A stretch of 64,000 bases of DNA, taken from assembly GCA_049325535.1 (NCBI GenBank), contig JBMOKY010000001.1, positions 157,002 through 221,001 on the forward strand, in the 5' to 3' direction. The DNA is from Patescibacteria group bacterium. GTDB taxonomy: Bacteria > Patescibacteriota > Patescibacteriia > UBA10025 > JAHIVO01. A program made the position numbers and the translations under genes. Below the pieces are notes generated by a model. It was not told where the DNA came from. It was given only the letters and a program-made list of their open reading frames with translations, and made no database searches. Within the stretch, counting starts at the first letter, position 1, and each line of letters starts with the position of its first letter. Shown piece after piece: positions 29,366-64,000 of this stretch.

Positions 29366-29436
29366 TTGACAGGCAAATACGGGGCTATCTGAATTTTTGT
29401 CTCATTAATCCATGTTCTGAATTCTTATAAAACAAT

Positions 29437-37419: not shown

Positions 37420-37506
37420 CGGAGGCGGAGGGATTCGAACCCCCGAGACCGTTGCCGGCCTAACGGTTTTCAAGACCGTCCCATTCAACCACTCTGGCAC
37501 GCCTCC
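37420..37506 (-). tRNA. tRNA-Ser (anticodon TGA), type II with long variable arm
   Basis: Reverse complement GGAGGCGTGCCAGAGTGGTTGAATGGGACGGTCTTGAAAACCGTTAGGCCGGCAACGGTCTCGGGGGTTCGAATCCCTCCGCCTCCG. Anticodon loop CTTGAAA. Confidence 0.85.
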
Positions 37507-37512
37507 ATTGGC

Positions 37513-42794: not shown

Positions 42795-43307
42795 TTAATT
42801 AGATACCGGGGAAATGAGAAGTGTAAAACTAAGGGCGGAAATTACGTTTTGATCAGAGATGTCAGTGTCGGATTGGAATGTCACCCGCTGGCCGGTGAGC
42901 AGGTCGCCTATGGAAATTTCCTGGCGATTTGCCCCCTCACTATCGGCTGATGAAGAGGTAACGTCCCAGCGGATCACGGGTATGTCATCACCGATACGAA
43001 CCGTTACTGTTTTTTGAATTGTGTCATTACCCTCGCGGATAGGAATTTGTATAGTGACCTGGCGATCCGAGGTGTGTACCTCCTGGATGACGCCGGACCA
43101 GCTGAATGTACGTGCTCCGAGAACTACCGGGTGTGCCGAGGGGACGCTGACTACCGGTATTGGTGAGGTTTCTTTATCAGAACGATTGCTGGCTACAAAA
43201 TAACTGATCGATGCCGCGGCCACAATCAACACCATGATAGCGATTGAACCGTACACCGCTGGTTTTGACCAGCCATAGATATTGTCTTTTGAGGTTCTCA
43301 GAGGCAT
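42795..43307 (-). CDS. hypothetical membrane-anchored protein (170 aa)
   Basis: Single TM SIAIMVLIVAAASISYFVA and no recognisable motif. Confidence 0.5.
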   Translation of the reverse strand: MPLRTSKDNIYGWSKPAVYGSIAIMVLIVAAASISYFVASNRSDKETSPIPVVSVPSAHPVVLGARTFSWSGVIQEVHTSDRQVTIQIPIREGNDTIQKTVTVRIGDDIPVIRWDVTSSSADSEGANRQEISIGDLLTGQRVTFQSDTDISDQNVISALSFTLLISPVSN

Positions 43308-43319
43308 CGAAGTATCAGT

Positions 43320-43354
43320 TGACTTTATGGCTAAATTATGTTACTATTAAGTGG
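43320..43354 (+). promoter_or_regulatory. candidate sigma70 promoter (TTGACT-17 nt-TACTAT) in the AT-rich region upstream of the giant-protein array
   Basis: TTGACT at 43320-43325 and TACTAT 17 nt downstream. The region also carries inverted repeats (GTTGA-N4-TCAAC, TTGCAA). Confidence 0.3.
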
Positions 43355-43473
43355 AATTTGAGCTCCGCAATGTATTGTAATTATTGCAATTAAATGTTGA
43401 TTTGTCAACAATTGTCTGAGAAAAGCATTTGCGGGAATATATAGAAAAAAGCCGGTAATTAGGGGGTATTATT

Positions 43474-46400
43474 GTGCAAAACTCAATAAAAAATAAGACC
43501 TCATTCATTAATAGGGCTAATATTGGCCTATTTTTTATTTTTTTCTTTTTATTAGCCTTTTTTTTGGCAGATAGTGTATTTGCACAGCTTGACCCCAGCG
43601 CTCCTCCACCCGAGAATAATACCCCGGAGCTCATCCGTATAGATGAAACAAGCCAGGCAAAGAGCGGAGCGCTGCGTTTTGGTACTGACGATGCTACCTC
43701 ACCATTCACTTACCAGCTGGAGGTATTGGGATCCGGCGCCCAATTGAGTAATGCCATGGTGGATAATGAACTGTCGGTCAACCAATCAAACCGTACGCTT
43801 TTTGTGGATCCGGTTACTCATCGGGTGTGTGTCGGGGAATGCATCGATGATGCTGATTCGGTGCTGCAGGTCGGTGATGGTCGAGTGCATGTATCAGGGG
43901 TGGATGATACGGGCATCCAGGGGATGAGCCAGGCTGATATCGGACTGTACGGCTCTGGCGCGACCTATGGAGTCCAGGGGGTTTCCTCAAATCCTTTGGG
44001 CTATGGCATGTGGGCTGTCAGCACATTGAGTTCGGCGCTGATCGGGTCGCATACCGGGGTCGTGCCCGCATACAGTTCAGTGGCAGGGTTTAGTGATACT
44101 GGAGTTGCCATCTATGGTGCAAATACAAACCTAAACAATTTATGGTCATCATATTTTTCAGGGATAGTCGAGTCGAGTGAAATAATTTCAGCGGCAAAAG
44201 TACTTGCGACTGAACCTGGTCAGTCGTTCATCCCCTACACAGCGGGACAGTTGGCTGGGCAGTATTTTACTCAGTATTATCCAGGTCGTCTCGCCACCGA
44301 TGGCCGTTTTCTCTGGATAGCCCAGATGGGCAACTATCATGACTATTTACTGCAGGTGGATAAGGGAACCGGAACCATCATTGCTCGATTTGCACTGGGG
44401 CCAGCTCAGGATTTGATATACGACCCTGTTCACCAGTACATTTGGCAGGCCTCGGAGACGTATTCGGGCAGCATTGGGTATGTGGACGTGACTACGGGTA
44501 CTGGTGCGCGCCGCACTGTCCGCGATACTGATGGTCATGGCACATGCCCATTTGGCTTTATCGTGCGCGATCCAAATGATGCGGATATTCTCTGGGCATT
44601 GCAGTCTGGAGGAAACTGTTTTGGTCGTGATTATTATGATCGACTGCTCAAATTAAGCATTGCGGATTTAGCTGATAATCCGACGACCTGGGAACCGCTT
44701 GCCCGCTATGACATCGTGCACGATGAAGCTCCGACCGCACCCTTTACCGAAGGTCCTCGTGCCCTCACATTTGATACTGACACCAATACGGTGTGGGCAG
44801 CTTTTTTAAATAATGATGCCGTCTATAGAATAGATGCCGCCGATCCGGGAAACGGCGACACGCTGGTTACCTCAGCCGATTATACACGATATGACGTACC
44901 GGGCCCGACTGACCTCGCGGTTGATCCAGACCATCAGTATGTATGGGTATCAGCTGACGACAGTGGCACCGATAATGATGGGGCGTACTATATTGATATC
45001 TCTGCCGGGACAGTATCAGGCCGGATCATTACCGCCACCGGCGCAGTCGGACCTCAGGCGATCACCTATGACGGGACGAATGTGTGGGTGGCAACATATG
45101 ACGGGAGCACTGGCGTGGCTGACCGGTTCTCTGCCGGAAGCCCCGGGGCCGTCACCCATTTCTCCATTTCGGGAAACCGGTCGTATCGCGATATCCTGTA
45201 TGATCCGGTAGTGGAGGAGGTGTGGGTCCCGAGTTGGTATGGCAATTCGGTCAGCGGACTGAGCGTCAGCGACGGCAGCGTCCAACAGTTCTATGATTAT
45301 AGTGCTCGGGGATTTTCCGTACGGCATCATGACGGTACGTACGTCTGGCTGACGCGTAACGCTGAGGTATATAAGGTGCGGGCTGCAGACGGATTCATCG
45401 TATTTCGGGTGTCACTCGCCGGTACGCCGAGCGACGTGCTTTTTGATGCCAATGCCGTTTGGGTCACCGACAGCGACTCGGATATGGTATATAAACTTGA
45501 TCCCTATGACGGGTCGACAGTCTGCTCTCTGAGTTTGCAGGCTGGTGATGCACCGGTGAGTATCGTATTTGATGGGCGGACGTACTGGCTTACTGCCACG
45601 GGTTCGGGAGATGTAGTACAGGTAAGCAATACCTGCGGTGAATTGCAGCGGATACACGTGACCGCCACACCGCAGTCGCTGGGGCGCATAGTATACAATG
45701 GTAGCTATCTGTGGGTGGTTGCCAGCGCCGATAATGGCCTGATCAATATCAATCCCGCGACGGGCAATGCCGTGCTGTGGGATAACCTGGTTGGCGTAGA
45801 GCCGAGCGACATTTTTTATGATAATTATAATTATTGGGTGGCAAATCGGGGCACTAATTCCGTCACCGCATTTTATCTGACCGATGCCAAGCATTGTTCA
45901 CTTGATCAGTCGATGACGTGCAGCACGGACGCTGATTGCGGATCAAACGGCGGTTGTTTTGCCGATCCGCAATCGCGAGGCAGTTTCTCAGTGGGAAACG
46001 AGCCGGTGGCTGTCACTTTTGACGGTACGTACGTGTGGACGGCAAATGCATCAGGCAGCAGTCTGACTCGGCTGCTGGCGGCCGATCCGACAGTCCGTGA
46101 AGATGTTCCGCTTACTTTCTCACCTTTGGGATTATTGTTTGATAAGACGTACCTGTGGAGTACCGGTACCGGGAGTGCCGGGGATGTCGGTTTGGTAAAA
46201 TTATTCAGCGGGGTCGGGTATGGTACTGATTCGACAACCGATGGGTTAGCGCTCCAATCCGCGAGTCCCCTCACCTGGCAGCGCGGAAGCTACAGCATAT
46301 CCGGCGACGCCCGGGTGGGACAGTCAGTGAATATCGCGGGCGATCTGGATGGTGATAATAATTGGGGCGAGGCAGCAAGTGGTGATGCGATATTTAATAC

Positions 46401-47463
46401 GAATCTGGTGGTCTGGGACGGCATCAATGCATTACCTGATGGCGGGCATGACGTGCAGGCACTCATTCGAGCGTCTGACGGGTCGCTCTATGCTGGTGCG
46501 GTGACCGTGGCCGGCGCTCGCGTATTTAAATCGACGGACAATGGGGCTAGCTGGGTCAATACCGGTGGGCCAGCCAGCGGTACCCAGATTGATGCGCTGT
46601 ATGAGGCGAGCAATGGTGACCTATATGCCGGTACTGGTGGCGGCAACATCGGGTATATTTTCCGCAGCACTGACCAGGGAGCGACGTGGCCATTACTCCG
46701 CATGCTCAATGGCCAGGGTCCGGTCACGGCATTTCTCGAAGATGATGCTGATAATTTATATGCCGCGGCAGGTTTTGGCGCGACCGCGTATGTCTATAAA
46801 TCAACGGATGGGGGCGGCACGTGGAACAATACCGGGGCCATCGCCAATGCCACAAATATTTATGATTTGATACAGATCGATGACGGATCAATTTTAGCAG
46901 CCACCGGAAATGTCAACGGTAATGTGATGAGGACGACTGATCGGGGAGCCACCTGGATCGATACGGGTAATCTAGCCGGCGTGGATATCGTCCATGATAT
47001 CATCCAAGCAGCGGATGGATCGCTCTATGCCGGCGTGCATACCGGAGTCAGTGGTAATGTCGTATTTCGGTCCACGAATCGCGGCACCTCATGGGGATTG
47101 GTCGGCGCGGCTCCCGGCGCGGTTCAGGGATACTCTCTGACGCAGACCAGCGACGGTGCGCTGTACCTGGGTGCCGCTGTCGGGGTTGGGTCGAGTCAGC
47201 TGTATCGGTCGGCAAACAATGGCACTTCCTGGACAGAGGTATCAGGCCTGCCGGGCGGCGCCACCGCGTACGTCATCGTCAGTTCAGACGGGGCGCCGCG
47301 CTATAATCTGTATGTTGGTTTGTCGAGTACGAGCGGCGTCGCATCCGGTGAATTCGGTCCGCTACCTGCTGGTACGTACAATTGTCCCGAGGGGCATTTT
47401 GTGACCAATATCGAAACCAATGATTCGGACCAAGTCGTATTAATAGAGTGTCGACCACTTTAA
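43474..47463 (+). CDS. giant secreted surface protein, family A member 1 (1329 aa). It has YVTN/NHL-like beta-propeller repeats, a C-terminal BNR/Asp-box (sialidase-like) repeat array and a conserved C-terminal Cys-loop tag
   Basis: GTG start with an AGGGGG RBS. Signal peptide, then N-terminal QAKSGALRF and NRTLFVDP motifs. Repeats FDGTYVWTANASG and FDGRTYWLTATGSGD. BNR repeats STDNGASW, STDQGATW, STDGGGTW, TTDRGATW, STNRGTSW, SANNGTSW. Ends NCPEGHFVTNIE...ECRPL. Confidence 0.8.
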   Translation: MQNSIKNKTSFINRANIGLFFIFFFLLAFFLADSVFAQLDPSAPPPENNTPELIRIDETSQAKSGALRFGTDDATSPFTYQLEVLGSGAQLSNAMVDNELSVNQSNRTLFVDPVTHRVCVGECIDDADSVLQVGDGRVHVSGVDDTGIQGMSQADIGLYGSGATYGVQGVSSNPLGYGMWAVSTLSSALIGSHTGVVPAYSSVAGFSDTGVAIYGANTNLNNLWSSYFSGIVESSEIISAAKVLATEPGQSFIPYTAGQLAGQYFTQYYPGRLATDGRFLWIAQMGNYHDYLLQVDKGTGTIIARFALGPAQDLIYDPVHQYIWQASETYSGSIGYVDVTTGTGARRTVRDTDGHGTCPFGFIVRDPNDADILWALQSGGNCFGRDYYDRLLKLSIADLADNPTTWEPLARYDIVHDEAPTAPFTEGPRALTFDTDTNTVWAAFLNNDAVYRIDAADPGNGDTLVTSADYTRYDVPGPTDLAVDPDHQYVWVSADDSGTDNDGAYYIDISAGTVSGRIITATGAVGPQAITYDGTNVWVATYDGSTGVADRFSAGSPGAVTHFSISGNRSYRDILYDPVVEEVWVPSWYGNSVSGLSVSDGSVQQFYDYSARGFSVRHHDGTYVWLTRNAEVYKVRAADGFIVFRVSLAGTPSDVLFDANAVWVTDSDSDMVYKLDPYDGSTVCSLSLQAGDAPVSIVFDGRTYWLTATGSGDVVQVSNTCGELQRIHVTATPQSLGRIVYNGSYLWVVASADNGLININPATGNAVLWDNLVGVEPSDIFYDNYNYWVANRGTNSVTAFYLTDAKHCSLDQSMTCSTDADCGSNGGCFADPQSRGSFSVGNEPVAVTFDGTYVWTANASGSSLTRLLAADPTVREDVPLTFSPLGLLFDKTYLWSTGTGSAGDVGLVKLFSGVGYGTDSTTDGLALQSASPLTWQRGSYSISGDARVGQSVNIAGDLDGDNNWGEAASGDAIFNTNLVVWDGINALPDGGHDVQALIRASDGSLYAGAVTVAGARVFKSTDNGASWVNTGGPASGTQIDALYEASNGDLYAGTGGGNIGYIFRSTDQGATWPLLRMLNGQGPVTAFLEDDADNLYAAAGFGATAYVYKSTDGGGTWNNTGAIANATNIYDLIQIDDGSILAATGNVNGNVMRTTDRGATWIDTGNLAGVDIVHDIIQAADGSLYAGVHTGVSGNVVFRSTNRGTSWGLVGAAPGAVQGYSLTQTSDGALYLGAAVGVGSSQLYRSANNGTSWTEVSGLPGGATAYVIVSSDGAPRYNLYVGLSSTSGVASGEFGPLPAGTYNCPEGHFVTNIETNDSDQVVLIECRPL

Positions 47464-50400
47464 TTCGGCGTATGCGCATATTGCGAATCACAATTCAACC
47501 AGTGGTCAGCATAGGTATATGTGTGCTCATCGCTGCCGGCATCATCGTGCTCGCGGCACCGGTAGTGAGCGCTGCTTGGTTTCCTCCGTCGGCCCAACCC
47601 CCAGCGGGCAATGTTTATGCGCCGCTGAATACTAGCGCCGATAGCCAGGCAAAAGCCGGTAATCTGCTGCTGGACCCATACTATAATCCGTATGGGGAAC
47701 TTCCCGAAATCAATTACCCGCTGGAAGTGCGCGGTTCGCGCAATGCGTATATCAATGATTTGACCGTCACCTCTGACGGTATACTGGCGGTGGATACGGA
47801 TACGTTGTATGTCGATGGCGGCTCCCATGGCGTGGGTATAGGACTGACTGAACCTGAGACATTACTCGATATCGCCGGTGGTCTGCTGATCGGCAGCGCT
47901 TCCAGCGGCATTACCGGTTCGGCACTGGTCACCAGCAGCTCACTCAGTTATGGAGCGCTTGGCGTTTCGCTGACCGATGGTTTGACCTCGGTGCTCGGGA
48001 CAGGCACTGGCGTGGGTGTGTATGGCCTCCATACTGCTGGCGGGACAGGAATCCGCGCGGAGAGCGTGTCAGCCTCAGGTGCAGTCGGGAGCAGTGCAGC
48101 GCCGCTTGACCGGGCAGCTCCGGTGAAAGTAGCTGGGGTATACGGGCGCGCGCTCGGACTCGGTTCGTGGGCCGGGTATTTCGCTGAACAGACCGTGACA
48201 TCTGCCGAAGCGTATGCGCACGGATTCGTACCAAATCGCCAGGGGTATTCCCAGTATCCCTATACTATCGGTTGGGAAACCAGGGAGATAACGTCGAGTG
48301 CGCGCATCCAGCCAGAGACGATATTGTATGACGGTCGGTGGGTGTGGTTGCACAATTCCGTGACCTGGGCCAATGATCCGAATATTTTATTGATTGACCC
48401 GAGTAATGGCGCCATCAGCGAAGATTTTCGCCTGGTCAATGGCAGCGGAGTGGCGGCGCATGGCATGTCCCAGATGATTTTGGCTGGCGGGTATATCTGG
48501 ACAGCGAACTGGTGGGACGATGCGTATGGAGTATCCCGCGTAGACCCGAATGACCCGACGCATACTGCTACTCATTTTGCGGTGGGAAACCATTTCGGCG
48601 GCGGAGATGATGGTGCGCTCCGATTGGCCTATGACGATTTTACCACTGGTGGGCCCTATATCTGGACGGTGAATGGACCGGATAGCGCTACTTGGGACTA
48701 CACCCTCACTCGACTACGTCCGGCTGATGGTACCTATATCAATTTCCAGCTGAATCCAGTGGGTGGCCAGTCGTGTCTGTCTTATGATTGGAATCGCTGT
48801 ATCGATGGTATCGATAATGATGGAGATGGCAACATCGACCGTGGCATCTGCAGTAATCCGTCGTACACCACACAGGCAACCTGTGAGACCAACGGCGGTA
48901 CGTGGACACCGGGTGATACAGAGTGTATCAATAATGCCGGAACTGATACGGGCAATAGTCCGACCGGGGCGTATCCGGCGGGCGACGAGCGACTGGGTAT
49001 GTATGAGCCAAACGGACCATCCGGTATTACGGTCCAGCCAAATCTCATCGATCCGACCAATCCTACGATTTGGGTATCGTTTAGCGGGGTCGTGCCCAGC
49101 AATCCGACGAGGTATGAAGGAGAAGCGATCGCGAAATTCAGCGGATTAAACCCGACTGACACCGCGCTGCAGGAGGTGTATTGTCCTGGTCCGGCGACTG
49201 AACCAGATGCCATCACCAATGGCGACGGGTACATCTGGATTGGGTCGAGCGCGCATTACTCCAAATACCAGGGGAATGATGGACTCGACCGGTTCGATCC
49301 GGTGGCAGAAACCTTTACCCATTTTCCCGCTTCAGCGGGTATAGAGCGGATCGCGTATGATGACCAGTCCGCTGGTGGGCCGTATATTTGGGGGCAGAAT
49401 TTTTGGGAGATTATGCAGTTTAATCCGGACGGTTCCATGGCGCATTTGCATAATTTGCCGGACGGAATTGCTGATTTTACATTTGATTATTCATCCGGCA
49501 ATGAGCCGTATTTTTGGGCATCCCAGTCGATCACAGGAGGTCTGAGTCGGACAGCTATAGCCGCTCCATATGACTCCATTACCTATACTCCAAAAGGGTC
49601 ATACTCTGACGACATCGTGTTTGATGGCACCTATATCTGGTCGACGAATTCGACTGCAAATACCGTGAGTCGGTACCGGGCTTCGGATGGGCAGAAGGTG
49701 GGGGATTATTTTGCCGGGTGGTATCCGCGATATATCACATTTGACGGCAGCTCGCTGTGGGTGACGCATCTGAATGAGGGCGGACCGACTGAACTCGCTC
49801 AGCTGGATGCTTCGACTGGTGAACTCATCGGTGATTATGATTATGGTGCGGTGAGTAATCCTACGGGAAATGATATTCTTTTCGATGGTACATACGTCTG
49901 GATAGCCGATTTCAACAATAATCGACTGCGGCGAATCGATCCGGCTACGTGCAGTGCCGGTGTCTGCGCCAAAACTGACATTGCGGTACCGTTTGGACCC
50001 CGCGCCATCGCTTTTGACGGTAATTCTATTTGGGCGATACAGCACTACGCTACAGGACTCGGGCGTAATAGTTTTTCTCGTATTCACCGGGATACCGGCG
50101 CCGTGCTCAATACCTATACCATCCCAAACGCGTATAACGCCGATGGGAATCTCCGTTCGTTATTGTTTGATGGCACATACCTATGGATGGGCGCGCAGTA
50201 TCGGGATGCCCAAGGAATGAGTCTCTATAAAGTACGGCCGAATGATGGATCGGTCGCCGCACGGGTCACGCTCTATAATGAGCCGGGCGTGTGTTCGGGC
50301 GGTGATCGGAATCGTCTGTACTGCACGACCAATGCCCAGTGTACCGGTGGTGGCGCCTGTTCAGCTACGGCTACAAACGTCAGTGCCCTGACATTCGACG

Positions 50401-51152
50401 GTACTCATGTGTGGGCGGTACAGGAACGCGCCAGCTATGTCCGCGAGTGCACTGACGGCAGAGATAATGACGGTGATGGATTGACTGACTACGCGGCGGT
50501 CGGTGGAGACCCGAGTTGCGCTGATAGTGACGATGTTCATGAAACTGACAGCAGTGATTTTTTCGGCACGACGACTGACATCGAGTGTGCCGACAGAATA
50601 GATAATGACGGGAACGGTTTATGTGATTGGGATGGCGCTGCTGGTTCCCCGGGCTGCAGCGGCAAACCAGATCCAGGATGTTCCGGCCCCACTGATATCA
50701 GCGAGCAGACCCGGCAGAGCGCTGGGTATCTCAGCCGAGTCAATGCGGGTACGGATCAGCGTATCGAAAGTATTTACTATGCTGCGTATTGTAATCCGAA
50801 CAGCCTGGCGTTTGACGGATCGAGCATTTGGATCAATCAGACGACAAATAACTGTGATAATTTTATCCTCCACCAGTATTTCGCGGGGACCGGCTCTGGT
50901 CAGGCGGATCTGGAGGGATTGGCGAACCTGCAGACCACGGTGCCGGGACGGTCGCAGAGCGGCAGCGCCGCCAGCTATGGAGAGGCAACGGTTGGGCGAT
51001 CACTGATGGTGACCGGTGACTTGCGTGTGGTGGAAAATGTGTGGGGTGGTAGTGCCGATGCCGTGCCTGATTTTGGGCAGTCCTGCACCGATGGAGAATT
51101 TGTCAAAGGTATTGACACGCAGAATAAACAATTACATTGTCGGCCGCTCTAA
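47448..51152 (+). CDS. giant secreted surface protein, family A member 2 (1234 aa), with propeller repeats, DNDGDG Ca-binding-type Cys motifs and the same C-terminal tag
   Basis: N-terminal SQAKAGNLLLDP and DTLYVDGGSHGVGIG, GxYG repeats, FDGTYIWSTNSTANT, CIDGIDNDGDGNID, CTDGRDNDGDGLTDY. Ends SCTDGEFVKGIDTQNKQLHCRPL. An alternative start at 47471 avoids overlap. Confidence 0.8.
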   Translation: MSTTLIRRMRILRITIQPVVSIGICVLIAAGIIVLAAPVVSAAWFPPSAQPPAGNVYAPLNTSADSQAKAGNLLLDPYYNPYGELPEINYPLEVRGSRNAYINDLTVTSDGILAVDTDTLYVDGGSHGVGIGLTEPETLLDIAGGLLIGSASSGITGSALVTSSSLSYGALGVSLTDGLTSVLGTGTGVGVYGLHTAGGTGIRAESVSASGAVGSSAAPLDRAAPVKVAGVYGRALGLGSWAGYFAEQTVTSAEAYAHGFVPNRQGYSQYPYTIGWETREITSSARIQPETILYDGRWVWLHNSVTWANDPNILLIDPSNGAISEDFRLVNGSGVAAHGMSQMILAGGYIWTANWWDDAYGVSRVDPNDPTHTATHFAVGNHFGGGDDGALRLAYDDFTTGGPYIWTVNGPDSATWDYTLTRLRPADGTYINFQLNPVGGQSCLSYDWNRCIDGIDNDGDGNIDRGICSNPSYTTQATCETNGGTWTPGDTECINNAGTDTGNSPTGAYPAGDERLGMYEPNGPSGITVQPNLIDPTNPTIWVSFSGVVPSNPTRYEGEAIAKFSGLNPTDTALQEVYCPGPATEPDAITNGDGYIWIGSSAHYSKYQGNDGLDRFDPVAETFTHFPASAGIERIAYDDQSAGGPYIWGQNFWEIMQFNPDGSMAHLHNLPDGIADFTFDYSSGNEPYFWASQSITGGLSRTAIAAPYDSITYTPKGSYSDDIVFDGTYIWSTNSTANTVSRYRASDGQKVGDYFAGWYPRYITFDGSSLWVTHLNEGGPTELAQLDASTGELIGDYDYGAVSNPTGNDILFDGTYVWIADFNNNRLRRIDPATCSAGVCAKTDIAVPFGPRAIAFDGNSIWAIQHYATGLGRNSFSRIHRDTGAVLNTYTIPNAYNADGNLRSLLFDGTYLWMGAQYRDAQGMSLYKVRPNDGSVAARVTLYNEPGVCSGGDRNRLYCTTNAQCTGGGACSATATNVSALTFDGTHVWAVQERASYVRECTDGRDNDGDGLTDYAAVGGDPSCADSDDVHETDSSDFFGTTTDIECADRIDNDGNGLCDWDGAAGSPGCSGKPDPGCSGPTDISEQTRQSAGYLSRVNAGTDQRIESIYYAAYCNPNSLAFDGSSIWINQTTNNCDNFILHQYFAGTGSGQADLEGLANLQTTVPGRSQSGSAASYGEATVGRSLMVTGDLRVVENVWGGSADAVPDFGQSCTDGEFVKGIDTQNKQLHCRPL

Positions 51153-51161
51153 TACAGAGAT

Positions 51162-53546: not shown

Positions 53547-53553
53547 TTATCAT

Positions 53554-55011: not shown

Positions 55012-55012
55012 T

Positions 55013-58000
55013 ATGTCACGTCGCACCATCATCATCATACGCATCTGCGGCGCTCTCGCCATTCTCGGCGTGCTGGCGCTCGGCGTGCTGCTGGCTATAT
55101 TCAGTCAGCAGGATCATACGGTGCGGAAAGCCGATCCGGAGCAGGTGGCGGATCCTCTGGTGCTGGCCCATACGTCAAATGTCGCCGCCGAACGGCGCAA
55201 TGAAGACGGTACGGTGTCAGTGGAATATTCTCTCTTTGCTCAGCAGTATCTGACGAACGATCCGGGTGTTTTCGCGCCGATTGATTCATCGATTATCCCT
55301 TCGTACCGGCCGGAATACGACTATGAGAATACGACCAACGTGATGCATACGTATTTCAGCGACGACAGCAGCCGGGAGGACTTTATCGTGCATACGGTAC
55401 CCGGCGGACGCCGGGTGTCATTCCGGTACGTCGGAGCGCAGCCGGGGAAGTGGGACGTTGATGGCAGCATGGCCACGTTTGCGGATCTGTTTCCGGGCGT
55501 GGACGCGGTGTACACTATCCGGAATGACGCGCTGATTGAGGAGCTGGTCGTCCGGGATGAAGCCACCGCTCTGGCGCTGGGATCAGTCACGCAGGAAATC
55601 AAGCTCGATGGGCTGTACTATAAAGAGCAGGCAGACGGATCGATCACTCTCCATGATGCGGAGACGCGCCATGGCGTATTTGTCATTCCGGCGCCACTGA
55701 TGTACGAATTGGATTCATCCGAGCCGCTGATGTCCGATAAATTGCACTATGACATCGAGGAGGTCGATGACGCCACTATTATCCTGCATAAAGTCATCGA
55801 TCCAAAGGGAAAACTATGGATGCAGGCGGCGAAGTATCCGATCGTCGTCGATAATTCGTACCTGGGCTGGTTTGACAATAACATGTTTGGTGAAGCGCGG
55901 CGCAGCCGGCCAAACGGATCGAGTGCGTATTCATATACGTTCACGTCTCCTGGTTCAGATTTCAATCGGACTGGCACCTGGCGGACTGATCCGCCTCAGA
56001 GCTGTTCGTCATGCTATTCGTTTTGGGATTACCGTTATTATTATAGCTTTATTACGGGCGTGAATGAGATGCCCGGTAACTATAGTTTTGATACCAGCCA
56101 GGTCATCGGCGGCAAACTGTGGCTGTACGGCTACCGCTCGGGCGGCGTGGTCAATCAGGTGGAGCTGCCGACCAATTATGTGGTCAATGTGTACGCCGGG
56201 CCAAACATATGGGCAAATATTTCTGACCCGGCGGCGCTGTGGGGGTATACCAGCGTAATGAATTTGACGTACCAGTTTCCGGTAACCACCCTGCCCAATG
56301 CCGCTACCCAGAACTGCTATGGCAATCCCTCATCATGTGAAATCGCCATCCCCTTGGATATCAGCGATTTGTCGCTGTCGCAGACCCCGACTGGCCGTAC
56401 CCAGTTCATATTGGAAGATACCTGGAATACGTATTATCAAAATGGATTCCTCGGCATGTGGACGCTTCGTCAATTTTTCAGTACTACGCCTCCCTATCCC
56501 CGGCTGGAGATCATCTATCTGCCCCGGCCGGTGATCCGCGTGGATCCGCAGGCGGGAACGAGCACCACATCACTGGAAGTGCAGATAGATGATGATTTTA
56601 CTGATGAGACCGAATACCGGCTCGAGCGCTCCCTGGCCGGCTCCAGTGGGCCCTGGACCCAAATCTGCGCCAGCATGTCTACCGGCGGTTCAGGATCGTG
56701 CGGTACAGGCATCACCTATGATTGTACCGGCGTCACCGTCGCGGGAACTACCGGATACTGCAGTATCATCGACAATCTGAGCCAGAGCAGCGGATTGACT
56801 CAGTATTCTGACCGGCATGTCTGGTACCGCGCCCGCGTCCAGCGGACTGATCCAGTACCCGGTGAATCATATGTTTCGAGCTATAGCAATGTCGAACATG
56901 ACTATACATTGGCGGCGCTGGCCACGAGCGCTCCGTCAGTGACCGTGGAGTCGTGGTCATCGATCAAGATATGGCCAGCGTCTGGCATGGGGGATGAATA
57001 CACCAATCAGCGGTCGTATTTTGCCTCCGATGCCGAGCCGACCAAATATTGTATCGGGTTATGGACGTATCCCGCATATCCGAACTGGAATTATTCCCCA
57101 ACTAGTGATATTCGCTATGTTGACGATCCGCCATCGGCAAATAGCACCGTCTATACCAATGTTCCGAGCGGGACGAGCAGCGGACGAGATTTGATCAATA
57201 ATGGCACTTTCCCGGGTGATCCGCGCTGTCTTACATTTTACCAGTGGGTGTGGTTCCCCTTGATCAATCCTTTCTATGCGTCTGGTGAGTGGACCGACTA
57301 CGCCTACCTCAAACCGAATGCACTATATGCGGTCGGCACCTTCTCCCAAAACACCCGGGACAATACGGTCAATAATCCTGGCGTACAGAATTTTGTGGAA
57401 ATCTACACGCGGGCGCGCACTCCGTCTGCTCCAAATAATCCCATAGGCGCCAATAATACCAGTACCACGCTACAGATCGCGCTCAATAGCACGCCTCAGT
57501 CCAGCCCGACGACGGCGCCCTGGACCAATCCAGCGTCAACCCAGTACAACATACAAATACAGCAGGGGGGATCGTGGTATTATCTATCCACTGCCGGCGG
57601 CAGTTCACGATTAGGCTCGCCCCAATGGGGTGACAGCACCGCTTGGAACGGTACTACCGGACGCACCATCACCGGACTCAGTCCGGCTACCTGCTATAAT
57701 TTCCGGTCTCAGTCCAGAAATGCCGATGGGGTAATCGGTGAAACCGCGGCGGCGCAGTGGTCAAATACTGCCCAGTACTGCACTCCGCTCAGTCCGCCGT
57801 CGGCACCTGACGTGCAGTGCGGCTACAGCACTGATATCGGTGTGGGCTACTACTGTGACGTGACTCTCCACGATACCGCTAATCCGTCGCCGCCATACTT
57901 TTACAAAGTACAGCGGTCGTACAATAATTCTGTTTGGACGAATATCAACGGCGGCACCCTGACCAACGGTACGCCCCTGACATACATCAATACCTATTGG

Positions 58001-61000
58001 TCGCAGACAGTACAGAACAATGGCACTATTCGTTTTAGGAATTTATCATGCAGTGCCGGGGTGAACCGGCTGTATTTCCGGGTGTTTGCCTCCATCAGCG
58101 GAAGCGACAGTGATACGTCCATTTCTACGGCATCACCGGTCCGGGTGGACGTGTTGCCCCCGTGCCAGCCTGGCCAGCCTACCTATGCCGGTCCAAAAGG
58201 ATATGATTTCATCAATTGGAACTGGACGGCGCCCGCTACCATCCAGGCCATCACCGATCGAGATTTCTATGATTTTAGTCTCGGTCTGTATGCCAATGCC
58301 GGACTAGCTAATCCCTGGACGCAAACCGGCCTGCTGCCGAATACTGCTCATCGAGTTATGGTGCGCGCGTGTGACGCGGGCAATGCCAATAATGGTTTTG
58401 TCGAACGGTGTGGCCAGTGGTCTGTTTACTCTATATATAATTACACGTATGCAGCGCCGCCAAATGTCGATGTGTCGTGTGATTATGGCAGCGCGCTGGA
58501 TGATTATTTCTGCCGGGTCACCCTGACAGAAGCGTCGCCCCCGAATCCAAGCAGTCCCATTACTTCATATAAAGTAGATCATTGCAATGGCACCACTGCT
58601 TTTGATTGTGAAGGATTTGGAGCAACCTGGGCTTCCGTCGTGCCGCCGGGGTACTTTGCTCCTACTGGGTGGTTCAGTAAAAATTGGAATACGGAAGTCA
58701 CATTTACGTTTTCGGAAAGTAATCTGAGTTTCCAATCGTTCATGTCGTGCCAGCCGGATCATACATACCAATTTTTCCGGGTGTCGGTCAGGAATAGTAA
58801 TGGTGAAATAGAGCCGCTCTTCATCATAGGCGGGCCGTATGATACGCTGCCGCCGTGCCAACCGCAGAATCTCAACCATACGAATCAGAATCTGACCAGT
58901 TTGCGCTGGACGTGGACGGCGCCGTCGGGCGGGGAAACGGTATCCCAGTACACCGGCAGCACTTCCGGTTGCGGCACCAGTACCACGCCCTATACCACGC
59001 CAAACGCGTACCGTGACCAGAGTGGCACGCAGATCAATGCGCTGTGCACCGTGGAAGTCGGAGCACAGGATGCCCGGTCCCGTGTCGGCAGGAAAGTGAG
59101 CACCTCGGCGTATACATCGATCCAGGCGGTGACGGACATTTTATTTAATGATGTCCGAACAAATGAAATATCTATCCAGGCGAATTCTTCCACGGGAATA
59201 TTTTCAAATCTCGGAGCCGGATCAGCCGCCACGGGCGGCCCGGCCGGCATTCGATTCCGCAATAACCCGGTCGGCCCGGGCGGTGGTGGCGGCACATCAT
59301 TTACCTCTTGGGCAAATTCTGTGGCCGCAACTGACAGCGGTTTGTCGGCAAACCGTAACTATTGTTATCAAGCCAGCTCGCGCAATGGCAATGGAGATTA
59401 TAATCCATTATCACCCAATAATTACCAGCCAGTACCCGCTCAGTGCCGCTATACCCTGGCGGCTGTCCCGACTGCGCCGTTGCTGATCCGTGCCGAGGAT
59501 GGCACCTCGGCAAATATCACCGTGCGGACCAATGACGGCAATCCGCAGAGCAGCCCGGCCACGCAGTACGCGCTCTGCGTGACTAAATACGCGGCAGATG
59601 GGACGAAAGAGTTCGAGCGCTATGCCCGGCAGAATGGCAGCATCGATTTCTCCGGCCCGAGTTTCCAGTGCGCTTCTGGCGACGACTCGGGGCATTGGGG
59701 CACTTTTGACCAGTGGGGGGACAATAACGGCGTGGACATCGCGCTTGACCCGTCGAGTAAATATGATTTTGCCCTGAAAGCGCGCAATGGCGACGGGCCT
59801 ATCATCGAAAGTTCTGGTTGTGAAGAGGGTAATACCTGTATCGAGACGACGTTTGGTCCGAAGGCGACGTTGTTCCTGGTGCGGAATAACATTGTCGGTT
59901 GGGCTTGGTCATCGAATCTCGGCTGGATATCTACCAATTGTCTGAATCTCTATAATGTGACGGGATTTGGATTCAGCTGCAGCTCGGCCGAGGACTGGGG
60001 CGTGAATACGTATTTTGAAGCGTCGCGTAATATCAATCCGGTGGGTGGCTATGCCTGGGCGTCTTCCGGGCGGACCATCCCGGCTCAGCGCTGGACTGAC
60101 ATTGCTCAGGTGAATACGGTCCAGCCGGCCCAGACGAATTCGCATACGTCGGCGGACACAAATGTATTTGTCGATTCGTTCGGCCGACCACACCGTATCT
60201 GGGCGCAAGCCTGGCCTGGGTCAGGCGACAATCAGGATATTTTCTATCAGCGGTGGAATGGCCGCGAGTGGGTGACAGCGGGCGGGGCACTCGGCGCGGA
60301 AAATATCTCACAAACAGTAGCGGCATCCAGCCAGCCGACCATCGCATTTGATAACGATGAAAACCCGCATATCGCCTGGGTTGAGGGGACAAATGTCTGG
60401 GTGCTGCACTGGAATCCGACGGCCAATAATGGATTTGGCGGATGGGTATCGCCAACGGGTACGCTGTATCAGCCTGGATTTACTGATGTAAACACGACGC
60501 GGATCAATGTCTCGTCCATTACCGGAGTTGGGCCGGTCGATGGGCATCCCGCGCTCGTGGTTGACGCGGCCAATCATGATCATGTGGCTTTAGCCCACCT
60601 GACTGGTGGTGTGTACTCGGTGTACTATACGGAGTGGAGTGGCAGTGACTGGACGCGACCGGGCGGCGCGGCTGGATATGATGATATCAGCGGGGCATTG
60701 ACGTCGGTCGATCCGCAGCCGTCACTCGACGTGGAGCAGGGTTCGGGATATCCTTTTATCGTCTGGAGTGATGCCGTCAATCAGATTTTATACCGGCGTT
60801 GGGATGGTGCCGCATGGACAGCGGCGACGACCGTCAACGGCAGCACGACCAATGTGCAGAGCCCGAAGATTGTCGTCGATCATACCAATATCCCCCATAT
60901 CGCCTGGGGCAGCGCCACCGGCGTCCGCTATATTCGCTGGAATGCAACGGCTGGGGCCTGGGAATCGATTGATGGCGCCATGCCCGCGGATACCAGCCTG

Positions 61001-64000
61001 AATTATGATGTAGAACTCGGTACAGCTCGTACCTCAATCGGTTTGCGGGTGGATGCCCAGCGCCAGCCGCACCTCATCGGGTATGCCAGCGGAAATCCAC
61101 AGAAGATTTATTATCGCACCTGGGACCCCGCGGCAAAAGCCGCCGCCGGTGGATGGGTGACGGTTTCGGGCGCCACGGGGGCGGGACTGAACGACGAGAA
61201 TGTTGAGGTCGCCAGCCGGAGCGCTGCCGACATCCGCGGGGTTACATTTGATATTAACGGAGAAGGCGATCCATTTGTCATGTGGAGCGAAAATAGCGGC
61301 AGCTCGTGGGACGTATTTTATCGGTCATGGGATTCCGGGTACGGCGAGAGCGGCGCCGGGTGGATCAGTTTCAATACCAATGTCTGCGCCAATAACACGC
61401 AGAAGGGGTGCGCTGATAATTTTGACTGTAGTGGCGCGGCATGTATCGAGAGCGCTGGTACCCCGCCCCAGACGACCGACTGGACCGTGGCATGGGCGGA
61501 TATCGGCACGGCTCTCGGGTCAAATGAGGTCCAGGATTTCGTGTACGATGACGTGACTCCGGGTGGGCCGTATTTCTGGGTGACTTTTGACACGACTGCG
61601 GACAGCATCCAGCAGGTGCGAGCCAGTGACCTGACGGTGGTCGATACCATCGATCTCAATCCGTACGGAGCAGATGACGTAGCCGGTATCGAACTCGATA
61701 CCGTCACCGCCGGCGGGCCGTATCTGTGGGCTACTGCCTGGGAATCGAATCAAGTATTGCGCATACGTATAGCCGATCAGGCGGTGCTCAGTCGGACTCT
61801 GTCATCGTGTTTCAATGGTGGCCTCGGGGAGTATGATACCGATTGCAATCCGAATGGAATCGTCTTTGACCCGGTGACGGCGGATATCTGGGTGACCAAT
61901 CAGGAAGGGGGCAATCTCCACGGCAGTATCAGCCGGATCGAACCGACGACTAATACTGAATTAAACTGCGACGGCACTGTCCCCGGCGGCTCACCAAATC
62001 ACTGCGGCATCTGCTCTGATCCGGCTCATACCACCGAGAGTGCCTGTATCGCCGCCAATCCGGCAAATAACTGGTGGGGAGTGGGGAATAATCCGGTGAG
62101 TCTGCAGCTCGATCTCACCACCCAGTCGCTCTGGACAGGGGATCTGAATGGCCGCCGGTTTGCCAAACTCGACGTGACCACCGGTCAGGTGACGGAATTG
62201 AGCTTGCCTGCTGGGTATGCATATGCGATTTTCGGCCATGCCCGTGTCGGAGCAAATCTCTATGTGCCCCTGACTTCGTATTCCACTCATCCGCTGGGTG
62301 AGTTTGGCACCGGCGCTATCATGATCATCGATCCGGTGACGGCCACTATCATTGATGTGGTGGACATTGGGTTTCCTCGGTATCCGCAGGGGATCGCCTA
62401 TGACGGCAGATATCTCTGGCTTTCCAGCTGGTTTACCACGGGTACGTGTACCAATGACGCTACACTATATTGTAGCGATGGTGGCGATAGTAACGACGGC
62501 GTATGTTCCGGCGGGACCAATAACGGCGCCAGTTGTTATTTCGATTATGGATGTCCGGGCGGGGCGTGTATCCGGCCGGACTGCAGCAGTGTCGGCGGAG
62601 GGTGCAGCAATTCGCAAACCCGCATCTTCCAGTATGAGGCTTCGAGTCTGAAGCTCGTGGATTCGTACGAGGTGTCTCCGACGGATTGGCACCGGTCATA
62701 TAAAGTACTTTTTGCCGATGACGCCATTTGGGTAAATAGTTTGGTCGGATATTTGGCAAAAATTTCACTGGGTACCAGCGAGGGAATGGGATATGGGTAT
62801 TGCTATGATCAGGCAGGCGTGAACGGCAAACGCTACGGCCAGTGTTCCGACGGGGTGGGCGATTGTGTCGCCGATATTGATTGTGCCGCAGGTGAAAATT
62901 GTATCTATTATACATGTGCCAATCATGCCGATTGCCCAAATTATGTACCGACGGGAGCCGATGAGCAGTGCAAAGCCATCGCTACCGCCAGCTTTAGCGG
63001 TATCACCCGGGAAGTGTCCGGCTGGGGTCGCATCCTGTCACTGAAAGCAGCTGGCGAGGCGCAGGGATTTGATGACTGGGGCTGGATCCGATTGGGCGGG
63101 CCATATGACGACCATCAATCCCAATCAGGACAGTACACGCTGTCCGGTACGGAGATTGATTCGCAGCAATTCCTGGGTGACCCGGATGTCAATCCGACCG
63201 ATGTGCAGCTATACACGCTGTTTGGTTGGGGATGGCAGGGTATGCTTATTCCTTCGTCACGAAATAATTCGGTGTGGCTGCCGCATATGAATATCACTGA
63301 AACTGGCAGGGCCGCAGACGACACGCAACGTAATTATGGTTCCCCATCTATTGTTATTGACTCCATCGGTGATCCGCACATGGCCTGGTCAGAATACGAT
63401 GCGGCTAACGCGTCATATGACATATATTATGCCCGGCAGAAACGGGGCAGATGGGAGACCGTAGCCGGTACGGCGTATGTGCCCGGCACCACGGATCCTC
63501 TCGCGTCTGGATTGAACGTGAGTAATGCCAATGGGACGGACGTCTTCTGGCCGAGCCTCAAACTAAATGCAGCTGATGAACCGTATCTGGTCTGGCAGCA
63601 GGGAGGTACCTATGCTGATGGAGGTGAGGTGTATTTCATGCGTTGGGACAGCGCCAGCAGCGGCTGGACCACCCCGGAAAAAATCGATGATGGTGGGACG
63701 CCTGATTTGGCGCTGGATCAAGCAGCCAATCCCCATGTGGCCTACCGCCATGGTACCGGAGCGAATCTGCATGTGTTTTATCGAGTCAGATTGGCCGGCG
63801 CGTGGGTAGATCCTGATGGTGGAACAGATGATCAGCAGGTCGACGTCGGAGCAGTCGGTGGTGCGGCTGGTTTTCCGAAAATTGCCGTGACTACCGGAAC
63901 TCCCGGTATTCCTAGTGTGGTTTGGGTACATGGTACCGGAATCTACTACCGTCAGTGGAGCGCAGCTTCGTCCACATGGCTTACCGCCAGCGGCGATGCA
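55013..64000 (+). CDS. giant TM-anchored surface protein, family B, 3'-partial (>=2996 aa). It has FN3-like modules, YVTN-like propeller repeats and a repeated ~50-aa PHIAW...YYRW module
   Basis: ATG at 55013 lies 1 nt after the stop of the upstream gene. I translated frame 2 by hand from 55013 to 64000 and found no stop. The supplied ORF track lists no frame-1 or frame-2 ORFs at all in this span, presumably because no stop occurs inside the window. N-terminal TM MSRRTIIIIRICGALAILGVLALGVLLAIF. Motifs INWNWTAPATIQAITDRDF, LRWTWTAPSGG, AYDGRYLWLSSW, DENPHIAWVEG and HTNIPHIAWGS. Confidence 0.75.
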   Translation, partial: MSRRTIIIIRICGALAILGVLALGVLLAIFSQQDHTVRKADPEQVADPLVLAHTSNVAAERRNEDGTVSVEYSLFAQQYLTNDPGVFAPIDSSIIPSYRPEYDYENTTNVMHTYFSDDSSREDFIVHTVPGGRRVSFRYVGAQPGKWDVDGSMATFADLFPGVDAVYTIRNDALIEELVVRDEATALALGSVTQEIKLDGLYYKEQADGSITLHDAETRHGVFVIPAPLMYELDSSEPLMSDKLHYDIEEVDDATIILHKVIDPKGKLWMQAAKYPIVVDNSYLGWFDNNMFGEARRSRPNGSSAYSYTFTSPGSDFNRTGTWRTDPPQSCSSCYSFWDYRYYYSFITGVNEMPGNYSFDTSQVIGGKLWLYGYRSGGVVNQVELPTNYVVNVYAGPNIWANISDPAALWGYTSVMNLTYQFPVTTLPNAATQNCYGNPSSCEIAIPLDISDLSLSQTPTGRTQFILEDTWNTYYQNGFLGMWTLRQFFSTTPPYPRLEIIYLPRPVIRVDPQAGTSTTSLEVQIDDDFTDETEYRLERSLAGSSGPWTQICASMSTGGSGSCGTGITYDCTGVTVAGTTGYCSIIDNLSQSSGLTQYSDRHVWYRARVQRTDPVPGESYVSSYSNVEHDYTLAALATSAPSVTVESWSSIKIWPASGMGDEYTNQRSYFASDAEPTKYCIGLWTYPAYPNWNYSPTSDIRYVDDPPSANSTVYTNVPSGTSSGRDLINNGTFPGDPRCLTFYQWVWFPLINPFYASGEWTDYAYLKPNALYAVGTFSQNTRDNTVNNPGVQNFVEIYTRARTPSAPNNPIGANNTSTTLQIALNSTPQSSPTTAPWTNPASTQYNIQIQQGGSWYYLSTAGGSSRLGSPQWGDSTAWNGTTGRTITGLSPATCYNFRSQSRNADGVIGETAAAQWSNTAQYCTPLSPPSAPDVQCGYSTDIGVGYYCDVTLHDTANPSPPYFYKVQRSYNNSVWTNINGGTLTNGTPLTYINTYWSQTVQNNGTIRFRNLSCSAGVNRLYFRVFASISGSDSDTSISTASPVRVDVLPPCQPGQPTYAGPKGYDFINWNWTAPATIQAITDRDFYDFSLGLYANAGLANPWTQTGLLPNTAHRVMVRACDAGNANNGFVERCGQWSVYSIYNYTYAAPPNVDVSCDYGSALDDYFCRVTLTEASPPNPSSPITSYKVDHCNGTTAFDCEGFGATWASVVPPGYFAPTGWFSKNWNTEVTFTFSESNLSFQSFMSCQPDHTYQFFRVSVRNSNGEIEPLFIIGGPYDTLPPCQPQNLNHTNQNLTSLRWTWTAPSGGETVSQYTGSTSGCGTSTTPYTTPNAYRDQSGTQINALCTVEVGAQDARSRVGRKVSTSAYTSIQAVTDILFNDVRTNEISIQANSSTGIFSNLGAGSAATGGPAGIRFRNNPVGPGGGGGTSFTSWANSVAATDSGLSANRNYCYQASSRNGNGDYNPLSPNNYQPVPAQCRYTLAAVPTAPLLIRAEDGTSANITVRTNDGNPQSSPATQYALCVTKYAADGTKEFERYARQNGSIDFSGPSFQCASGDDSGHWGTFDQWGDNNGVDIALDPSSKYDFALKARNGDGPIIESSGCEEGNTCIETTFGPKATLFLVRNNIVGWAWSSNLGWISTNCLNLYNVTGFGFSCSSAEDWGVNTYFEASRNINPVGGYAWASSGRTIPAQRWTDIAQVNTVQPAQTNSHTSADTNVFVDSFGRPHRIWAQAWPGSGDNQDIFYQRWNGREWVTAGGALGAENISQTVAASSQPTIAFDNDENPHIAWVEGTNVWVLHWNPTANNGFGGWVSPTGTLYQPGFTDVNTTRINVSSITGVGPVDGHPALVVDAANHDHVALAHLTGGVYSVYYTEWSGSDWTRPGGAAGYDDISGALTSVDPQPSLDVEQGSGYPFIVWSDAVNQILYRRWDGAAWTAATTVNGSTTNVQSPKIVVDHTNIPHIAWGSATGVRYIRWNATAGAWESIDGAMPADTSLNYDVELGTARTSIGLRVDAQRQPHLIGYASGNPQKIYYRTWDPAAKAAAGGWVTVSGATGAGLNDENVEVASRSAADIRGVTFDINGEGDPFVMWSENSGSSWDVFYRSWDSGYGESGAGWISFNTNVCANNTQKGCADNFDCSGAACIESAGTPPQTTDWTVAWADIGTALGSNEVQDFVYDDVTPGGPYFWVTFDTTADSIQQVRASDLTVVDTIDLNPYGADDVAGIELDTVTAGGPYLWATAWESNQVLRIRIADQAVLSRTLSSCFNGGLGEYDTDCNPNGIVFDPVTADIWVTNQEGGNLHGSISRIEPTTNTELNCDGTVPGGSPNHCGICSDPAHTTESACIAANPANNWWGVGNNPVSLQLDLTTQSLWTGDLNGRRFAKLDVTTGQVTELSLPAGYAYAIFGHARVGANLYVPLTSYSTHPLGEFGTGAIMIIDPVTATIIDVVDIGFPRYPQGIAYDGRYLWLSSWFTTGTCTNDATLYCSDGGDSNDGVCSGGTNNGASCYFDYGCPGGACIRPDCSSVGGGCSNSQTRIFQYEASSLKLVDSYEVSPTDWHRSYKVLFADDAIWVNSLVGYLAKISLGTSEGMGYGYCYDQAGVNGKRYGQCSDGVGDCVADIDCAAGENCIYYTCANHADCPNYVPTGADEQCKAIATASFSGITREVSGWGRILSLKAAGEAQGFDDWGWIRLGGPYDDHQSQSGQYTLSGTEIDSQQFLGDPDVNPTDVQLYTLFGWGWQGMLIPSSRNNSVWLPHMNITETGRAADDTQRNYGSPSIVIDSIGDPHMAWSEYDAANASYDIYYARQKRGRWETVAGTAYVPGTTDPLASGLNVSNANGTDVFWPSLKLNAADEPYLVWQQGGTYADGGEVYFMRWDSASSGWTTPEKIDDGGTPDLALDQAANPHVAYRHGTGANLHVFYRVRLAGAWVDPDGGTDDQQVDVGAVGGAAGFPKIAVTTGTPGIPSVVWVHGTGIYYRQWSAASSTWLTASGDA

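Follow-up and report, generated by a model that had tools for sequence, protein, structure and literature searches.

Patescibacteria live attached to other microbes and, to our knowledge, host-recognition proteins have hardly been described among them outside the pili of Saccharibacteria. The described systems closest to the locus treated here are tail fibres and type IV pilus adhesins. Tail-fibre proteins of the S74 type form trimeric triple-beta-helix fibres; Peptidase_S74 acts as an intramolecular chaperone and is characteristic of trimeric tail fibres and tailspikes, and S74 proteins are also common as bacterial 'tail fiber domain-containing' proteins. The propeller-bearing pilus adhesin PilY1 is found in Pseudomonas and in Myxococcus, and occurs in Myxococcus xanthus as several (three) paralogues per genome. 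PilX2 of Saccharibacteria TM7x is a propeller-bearing pilus adhesin with RCC1 repeats and a non-canonical signal peptide, and efficient host binding depends on it (PMC11623550). The locus compared with these systems lies at the end of a 64,000-nucleotide (nt) stretch from a Patescibacteria group bacterium (contig JBMOKY010000001.1, positions 157,002 to 221,001), here called the window. It is an operon of three genes for related proteins with signal peptides (A1, A2, A3) and two genes for membrane-anchored proteins (B1, B2). The chances are about even that these form a lineage-specific, fibre-like adhesin set working beside type IV pili. The operon is a concrete candidate for the host-recognition set of one lineage, made up of three putatively fibre-like propeller proteins and a giant anchored protein.

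The five open reading frames (ORFs) lie in tandem on the plus strand and overlap or are separated by gaps of 2-10 nt, which is operon-like spacing. Lengths are in amino acids (aa); profile matches are from hidden Markov models (HMMs).

43474..47463, plus strand: A1, 1329 aa; signal peptide, N-module, FDG.Y.W propeller repeats, C-terminal BNR/Sortilin-type propeller, C-module
43579-44247, plus strand: A1 N-module (HMM E 3.6e-96 over aa 36-258)
47221-47460, plus strand: A1 C-module
47383..47463, plus strand: A1 C-terminal Cys-loop tag, CPEGHFVTNIETNDSDQVVLIECRPL-stop, from a six-frame motif scan
47448..51152, plus strand: A2, 1234 aa from GTG 47448 (gene callers start at ATG 47472, giving 1226 aa)
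47568-48272, plus strand: A2 N-module (HMM E 5.6e-103)
50910-51149, plus strand: A2 C-module
51084..51152, plus strand: A2 C-terminal Cys-loop tag, CTDGEFVKGIDTQNKQLHCRPL-stop, from the same scan
51162..53546, plus strand: A3, 794 aa (public gene calls start at ATG 51174, giving 790 aa)
51264-51959, plus strand: A3 N-module
about 51939-53021, plus strand: predicted 7-bladed propeller of A3
53304-53543, plus strand: A3 C-module
53463..53546, plus strand: A3 C-terminal Cys-loop tag, CPTDGTFVKGITLDGNSRISSFTCRGL-stop, from the same scan
53554..55011, plus strand: B1, 485 aa; N-terminal transmembrane anchor and one domain paralogous to the N-terminal domain of B2
55013..64000, plus strand, running past the window end: B2, first 2995 of 3893 aa; N-terminal transmembrane anchor, B-domain

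A sequence-only reading of this DNA had recognised the five closely packed ORFs, which are present as it described them, and had taken them for five giant paralogues. They belong instead to two unrelated families, three A proteins and two B proteins, and B1 has merely 485 aa. That reading was borne out in part: its terminal motifs are real, while its claims of entirely different, hypervariable cores and of an adjoining type IV secretion system (T4SS) did not hold.

The A proteins share a Gly-rich N-module of about 230 aa. A basic/hydrophobic leader ends in A-x-A directly before a conserved W-x-E-P, and the consensus for the mature N-terminus of the family is W-x-E-P..PP..N...P......Q-x-K-x-G-x-L. 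About 300 N-terminal residues are common to A1, A2 and A3, at 25-29% identity (blastp E 5e-8 to 4e-30), and the N-terminal motifs PP..P, QAK.G.L and TL[FY]VD noted previously, plus W.GYF, are found in all three. Word-indexed homologue searches with the N-module or C-module profile gave almost no matches, and a full HMMER search against 1.84 billion representative proteins was used instead. With the N-module profile it returned 676 matches at E<=1e-3, 126 at E<=1e-10 and 67 at E<=1e-30. About 75 representatives of 600-2100 aa hold the whole N-module, at residues ~37-270 behind the leader. Dozens of proteins from many metagenomes thus have the terminal motifs, which extend well beyond the signal peptide, so the similarity is not the generic one between signal peptides. 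Chance would not give motifs of this kind so often by a wide margin. The A family is restricted to one fairly narrow Patescibacteria lineage, in which a crude assignment by best BLAST match gives each paralogue type some 20-30 clusters at 50% identity.

The central unit of the N-module, TLYVD-x5-VGIGT-x7-L-x-V-x-G (profile positions ~50-130), connects it to fibre proteins. The weaker profile matches are proteins that repeat this unit (TLYVD..VGIGT..P...L.V.G) 3-16 times, and six of the nine multi-repeat proteins scanned carry Peptidase_S74. The link of the N-module to fibre-type proteins appears at the level of this motif only; the N-module profile had 0 matches to PDB sequences. Like S74 tail-fibre proteins, the A proteins combine a conserved proximal part with variable distal binding domains. 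Unlike them, they hold about one unit, lack the S74 domain, have Sec signal peptides and are chromosomal cell proteins; they also end in a Cys hairpin in place of the chaperone. In a monomer AlphaFold2 (AF2) model of A3 the N-module has a predicted confidence (pLDDT) below 50. Such values are typical of intertwined oligomeric fibres; the shallow alignment could also explain them.

The extreme C-terminus of A1, A2 and A3 is formed by a common C-module of ~80 aa, with the consensus Q.GSFNISG...L.V.GDL.V..N.WGG...C..G.FVKGI...I.C-R-x-L-COOH. Both Cys and a single Gly never vary in it, and conservation is 90% or more at N, W and the last L. Its last part is the Cys-loop tag already pointed out in the sequence-only reading, C..G.FV..I...C-R-[PG]-L-stop, which across all six frames of the window is found at the ends of A1, A2 and A3 alone. 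A C-x-x-[L/I] ending is found in 71 of ~75 proteins with a full N-module. Among members with an intact C-terminus, Cys stands at position -4 in 74/74, Leu at -1 in 72/74 (Ile in the other 2), Arg at -3 in 61/74 and I, L, V or F at -6 in 72/74. A second Cys lies 16-25 residues upstream of Cys -4 in 69/74. Four members (P0038, P0059, P0062 and P0076) keep C-x-x-L without a partner Cys at that distance; in P0062 and P0076 the tag Cys is the single Cys in the last 150 residues. A simple structural disulfide can therefore not be the whole explanation of the tag, and a covalent or partner-recognition role has to be considered.

In an AF2 model of the 80-aa C-module the last 35 residues are predicted as a beta-hairpin (pLDDT ~90). 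The module has no transmembrane segment, no basic tail and no match to any known family; 43 C-modules compared with Pfam gave scattered single-member noise only. Its first half has matches to the trimeric stems of TP901-1/p2 BPP and T4 gp34 at a non-significant E of 0.4-1, and hhalign finds no relationship between the C-module and the N-module. For the two modules there is no Pfam, NCBIfam, PHROG or PDB family, and literature searches gave no description; they appear to be two undescribed sequence modules. Both, including the invariant C-R-x-L free C-terminus, could become profile models for annotation.

Between these modules lie the cores. Pfam and NCBIfam are nearly blank for A1-A3 and the B proteins. 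A1 has weak Pfam matches to BNR, Sortilin-Vps10 and Reg_prop at aa 1016-1258. A2 consists of a signal peptide, N-module, propeller repeats, Cys-rich acidic DNDGDG repeats and C-module, and matches the NCBIfam acidic double-disulfide repeat at E 3e-7, below the cutoff. A3 is built of a signal peptide, N-module, 7-bladed propeller, Cys-rich linker and C-module, with a Pfam/NCBIfam match to DUF6923. Its core is predicted to be a 7-bladed Vgb/YncE-like beta-propeller: in the AF2 model (34 sequences) residues 260-620 form this fold with confidence (pLDDT ~90), and the best Foldseek matches include virginiamycin B lyase (E 4e-12, TM-score 0.76), YncE (TM-score 0.74-0.75) and YVTN propellers. The cores had been described as entirely different from one another; in blastp they cross-match through common FDG.Y.W propeller repeats, which occur in B2 as well.

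Each A protein has its own full-length homologues, the best at 57-58% identity and many at 30-40% over ~100% coverage. The orthologues P0018 of A1 and P0004 of A2 are full-length at 58% identity, and the orthologue P0002 of A3 has 57%. Judged by these alignments, A1, A2 and A3 are three ancient paralogues, each with its own orthologue group. Domain content differs between genomes: proteins of the A1 type have 670-1504 aa and those of the A2 type 659-1958 aa. In GCA_018813575.1 (L007, 920-5994) two ORFs make up the A1-type gene: one of 283 aa contains the N-module, and one of 1389 aa contains the tag together with RCC1 and BNR repeats. The split may be genuine, or it may stem from a frameshift or an assembly error.

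Related loci were retrieved with an 8-sequence alignment. The flank on the left side of the operon is conserved with it:

41280-42152, minus strand: HtpX, M48 zinc protease (PF01435), 289 aa
42210-42767, minus strand: LemA (PF04011), 76-81% identical across related genomes
42795..43307, minus strand: small bitopic membrane protein, 170 aa, with an N-terminal transmembrane helix and a beta-rich ectodomain; divergent from A1
43319..43347, plus strand: promoter-like site upstream of A1, TTGACT-17-TACTAT with extended TG; consensus match only

The order HtpX-LemA-small membrane protein on the minus strand and A1-A2-A3-(B1)-B on the plus strand is the same in nine genomes (the window, L007, L010, L012-L016 and L019), each with one gene of each A type. 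The region is a lineage-specific operon, with its gene order conserved across the Patescibacteria genomes examined. These genomes are related (LemA ~80% identical), so the conserved synteny is no more than moderate evidence of functional coupling. The candidate promoter lies in the divergent intergenic region of 166 nt 5' of A1, and no convincing terminator was found in the stretch from A1 to B2. Each of the eight other genomes covering the site has the small membrane protein in this place (phmmer E 1e-13 to 1e-24); the protein has no Pfam or NCBIfam match. It is 27-33% identical between genomes in which LemA is ~80% identical, and of all the genes it has the highest density of single nucleotide polymorphisms (SNPs) between strains, 11.7 per kb; it may be part of the A/B system.

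The shared N-terminal domain and transmembrane anchor attributed to the B family were recovered: behind an N-terminal hydrophobic segment, ~400 aa of B1 and B2 are 22% identical (blastp E 5e-11). The B1 match covers the first ~450 residues of B2, which further carries fn3-like, BNR-like and FDG.Y.W propeller repeats. B1, also called as 485 aa in public contigs, has no Pfam, NCBIfam or PDB match; it is limited to the window lineage and its nearest relative, L019, and is absent in the six other genomes examined. The full-length B2 of 3893 aa is seen in Logan contigs, and the contig from which it was read has a B2 98% identical to that of the window. B giants of the syntenic genomes are anchored by a transmembrane segment and have 3200-3900 aa. 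Their extreme C-termini are conserved between species (L017 ~12900-13505; L010) as ...RGY.FDRKYTK.L...EQI.YDGRVVANTPPGL.DFT.ALP.Y.RV.P, and the Cys tag is lacking at the C-termini of B2 and of the complete L010 homologue. The ending of the B N-domain (...LEIIYLP / ...LVISYTP) recurs near the C-terminus (...IEYAP, ...LEVDYLTP); these motifs suggest that B proteins hold a repeated domain. In L018 (JGI 3300033153, 2338-17175) the B homologue has 4945 aa and a Peptidase_S8 (subtilisin) domain, and a gene of the 23S_rRNA_IVP family sits between the tagged A3-type gene and B.

Past the window end, in the contig with the full 3893-aa B2 (L017), the operon leads into type IV pilus genes. Here pilM starts 6 nt after B2 and the order is PilM (PF11104, E 2e-47), a 581-aa PilN-like protein, PilO, a 307-aa transmembrane protein, PilB (T2SSE and MshEN, E 6e-130), a response regulator and PilC (T2SSF). 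In L010, a different species, an ORF ~190 nt after B begins as PilM. The genes next to the operon are those of the pilus assembly platform; no pilin genes were seen beside it. The A/B operon is probably co-transcribed with the pilus assembly genes. A minimal T4SS had been named as the neighbour of the array. The T4SS-like genes are at 23140-32168, 11-20 kb away, with RadA, RecG, three tRNAs, ComF, ClpB, HtpX and LemA in between; in functional terms the neighbour that matters is the type IV pilus operon.

On the reading that is given about even chances, A1-A3 would be exported and would act on the cell surface as fibre-like, probably oligomeric adhesins. The N-module would serve as a stalk or attachment part and the propellers as ligand-binding heads. 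The Cys-stapled C-terminal hairpin may be a structural cap or docking element, either as a nucleus for assembly or as a binding site for a partner (B or the pilus), and would not be a cleavable sorting peptide. The A set, B and the type IV pilus would then fasten the cell to a host cell or a substrate, in keeping with the life of an epibiotic ultrasmall bacterium. In favour of this reading are the family with its tag, the three orthologue groups in constant order, the operon-like spacing, pilM adjoining B, the recurrence of the N-module unit in S74 proteins, the monomer AF2 model with a confident propeller and a failed N-module, the predicted hairpin, and PilY1 and TM7x PilX2 as precedents. 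Several points weigh against this. The fibre similarity is confined to one short repeat unit, and A1-A3 have no match to the S74 domain (PF13884), to a tail-fibre Pfam family or to a PHROG, apart from one PHROG of unknown function for A2. The spacing between the anchor motifs of the N-module is specific to the type (about 163, 174 and 172 aa); it does not discriminate between a homotrimer and a heterotrimer, and speaks neither for nor against a common heterotrimeric stalk. The synteny is of limited weight, as the genomes are fairly close (LemA 76-81%) and the pil adjacency comes from two lineages. The reading also offers no means by which cleaved, secreted A proteins would stay on the cell.

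It is unlikely that A1-A3 are themselves components of the type IV pilus, acting like PilY1 or PilX2 as tip or priming adhesins whose conserved termini dock on minor pilins. The likeness is in general design: these adhesins too are secreted, have a 7-bladed propeller and are encoded near genes of the type IV pilus. The operon leads into pilM, a pilN-like gene, pilO, pilB and pilC, and PilM follows in a second species too; a Sec signal peptide is combined with propellers, as in PilY1; the A1-type homologue of L007 has RCC1 repeats, like the propeller-bearing PilX2; and the three PilY1 paralogues of M. xanthus speak for several such proteins in one genome. No sequence relationship of A1-A3 to PilY1 or PilX2 was found, however. 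They have no PilY1/PilC Pfam match (for the PilY1 propeller PF05567, none at E<=0.01), the order of domains is different, and the A N- and C-modules have no counterpart in these adhesins. The N-terminus is not pilin-like: it lacks a G/F-T-L-x-E motif, and its hydrophobic segment is followed by an A-x-A site for signal peptidase I. The adjoining genes encode the assembly platform and not minor pilins, and the adjacency is known from two related lineages only.

An unlikely alternative concerns the tag, which had been suggested as a sorting or anchoring signal; C-R-x-L-COOH would be recognised by an enzyme that attaches the protein through cleavage, lipidation or Cys cross-linking. As in LPXTG, PEP-CTERM, GlyGly-CTERM and PGF-CTERM signals and the C-terminal domain (CTD) of the type IX secretion system (T9SS), a short conserved extreme C-terminus is found on several secreted proteins per genome. 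Within the family, conservation is strongest at the free C-terminus, where the motif always stands exactly at the end (Cys -4 in every intact member), the four members mentioned above keep C-x-x-L with no partner Cys nearby, and proteins with a cleaved signal peptide need some means of retention on the cell. The A tags differ from these signals in being 22-27 polar residues with two Cys and a predicted folded hairpin; they have neither the hydrophobic segment, or transmembrane helix, nor the basic tail of LPXTG, PEP-CTERM, GlyGly-CTERM and PGF-CTERM, and are embedded in an 80-aa conserved module with a confident hairpin prediction. None of the sorting-domain models in TIGRFAM, NCBIfam and Pfam matches the tag, and this includes the T9SS models Por_Secre_tail and TIGR04183; the T9SS CTD has 80-100 aa and belongs to Bacteroidota, whereas the window is from Patescibacteria. 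Pfam and NCBIfam scans of the window ORFs and of the conserved neighbours gave no gene for a sortase, exosortase, rhombosortase or CPBP protein. The putative substrates number three per genome, with the tag missing from the giant B proteins. Processing of a CaaX box by a Ste24-type protease can be discarded. The M48 neighbour is HtpX-like and not Ste24-type in both model and size (the top NCBIfam models are HtpX, E 2.3e-89, 299.5 bits against a cutoff of 355 bits), the middle residues of the tag are R followed by P, G or E and not aliphatic as in a CaaX box, and the A proteins have Sec signal peptides.

A quite improbable extension is a 1:1:1 heterotrimer of A1, A2 and A3, which would form a tail-fibre-like organelle for host recognition of a kind not described before. 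The C-R-x-L hairpins would act as a foldon-like cap or as a covalent link to B or the pilus via the terminal Cys. Retention of C-R-x-L in members that lack the partner Cys leaves room for this type of link, and the anchor-motif spacing speaks neither for nor against a common stalk. If a heterotrimer does exist, the tag would be a new kind of assembly or attachment signal. More generally, a tag that proves to be an assembly or attachment signal would mean a new mechanism; otherwise the A proteins are lineage-specific adhesins.

A lectin function of the C-module is very unlikely. It would make the module a single OAA-family (OAAH) lectin-like repeat at a glycan-binding tip, with the N.WGG loop binding sugar. 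Against all PDB sequences the C-module profile matched Burkholderia oklahomensis agglutinin (BOA) at E 7.8e-4; in each of the four BOA repeats N.WGG aligned to NQWGG, and C..GQFV to CRSGQNVV. N and W of this motif are among the residues at least 90% conserved in the C-module. As in OAA, BOA and MBHA, N.WGG is followed after ~15 residues by a G-x-hydrophobic strand. An hhalign comparison gave the same register, with a probability of only 12.5%. The C-module is a single repeat without the GEGPIGF motif, while OAA lectins consist of tandem ~66-aa repeats in a 10-stranded barrel, for which two repeats are needed. None of the 43 members scanned had an OAA-family Pfam match, and the C-module had no structural match to OAA-family lectins. 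The match is treated as a lead because of the low probability, the single repeat and the missing GEGPIGF.

The remaining idea, a contingency or antigenic-variation locus in which tandem paralogues with hypervariable cores recombine or switch, is extremely improbable and, as far as tests could reach, already refuted. The tandem paralogues do share conserved ends and are of surface character, and their 32-57% identity where LemA has 76-81% means faster evolution than in housekeeping genes. The cores are not hypervariable, however: compared with orthologues they are 32-48% identical, against 37-55% for the N-modules and 35-57% for the C-modules. By these figures the whole A proteins evolve fast, and the cores only slightly faster than the ends. 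The paralogues are just 25-29% identical to each other, each has its own full-length orthologues, and gene order and number are constant in the nine genomes. Positions 42700-64000 contain no simple sequence or tandem repeats, no inverted repeats and no long direct DNA repeats; short direct repeats there are conserved protein motifs only. Silent cassettes were not found, nor was a reverse transcriptase or recombinase in the operon. A public 114-kb Logan contig (SRR32167788_10479) matches the window at 100% identity; at 99.6% identity, a second strain (SRR28264341) shows scattered point differences only. Between this strain and the window there are 6.5 SNPs per kb in A1, 2.7 in A2 and 1.2 in A3, so that A1 is modestly raised over ClpB (1.2), a point in favour of the variation idea.

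In the strain of SRR28264341 (L001, 15349-20558) identity with the window breaks at ~37420, inside or beside a tRNA-Ser gene (37419-37507). The island past this gene encodes a large serine recombinase, a helix-turn-helix protein and an SNF2-type helicase, and probably represents a mobile element that inserted at this tRNA.

The T4SS-like or conjugation-like cluster at 23140-32168 is of the type found in the candidate phyla radiation (CPR):

24512-24943: PrgI/TcpE
25634-27550: VirB4/TraG-like ATPase
28211-29365: PF18895 'T4SS_pilin' protein
29437-30702: TolB-like propeller protein
30702-32168: PF18895 'T4SS_pilin' fused to an SLT lytic transglycosylase

The two PF18895 pilin-like proteins have an 80-aa stretch in common at 67% identity. 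A gene for a ComF-family (competence/DNA-utilisation) protein at 37777-38451 has ClpB and two tRNA-Ser genes as neighbours. With ComF, type IV pilus and T4SS-like genes, the window holds much machinery for DNA uptake and for the cell surface. Its gene content outside the array (PrgI/TcpE, the VirB4/TraG-like ATPase, the PF18895 proteins, split PPDK/PEP-utiliser genes, RadA, RecG, ComF, ClpB, HtpX and LemA) indicates a Patescibacteria/CPR genome.

Two more giant plus-strand ORFs are present at 107-10787. They are unrelated to the A and B families; one has 1969 aa with CBM_4_9 and a type I dockerin, and the other has 1594 aa and no Pfam match. Three tandem paralogues with a phosphoenolpyruvate (PEP)-utiliser mobile domain as their sole domain (540, 537 and 449 aa) and a separate PPDK_N (ATP-grasp) gene 5 kb off are found at 12224-16802 and 22181-23131; this looks like a split or expanded system of the pyruvate-phosphate-dikinase type. 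Riboflavin synthase (Lum_binding) and lumazine synthase (DMRL_synthase) are encoded at 16805-17849, in an otherwise reduced CPR-like genome.

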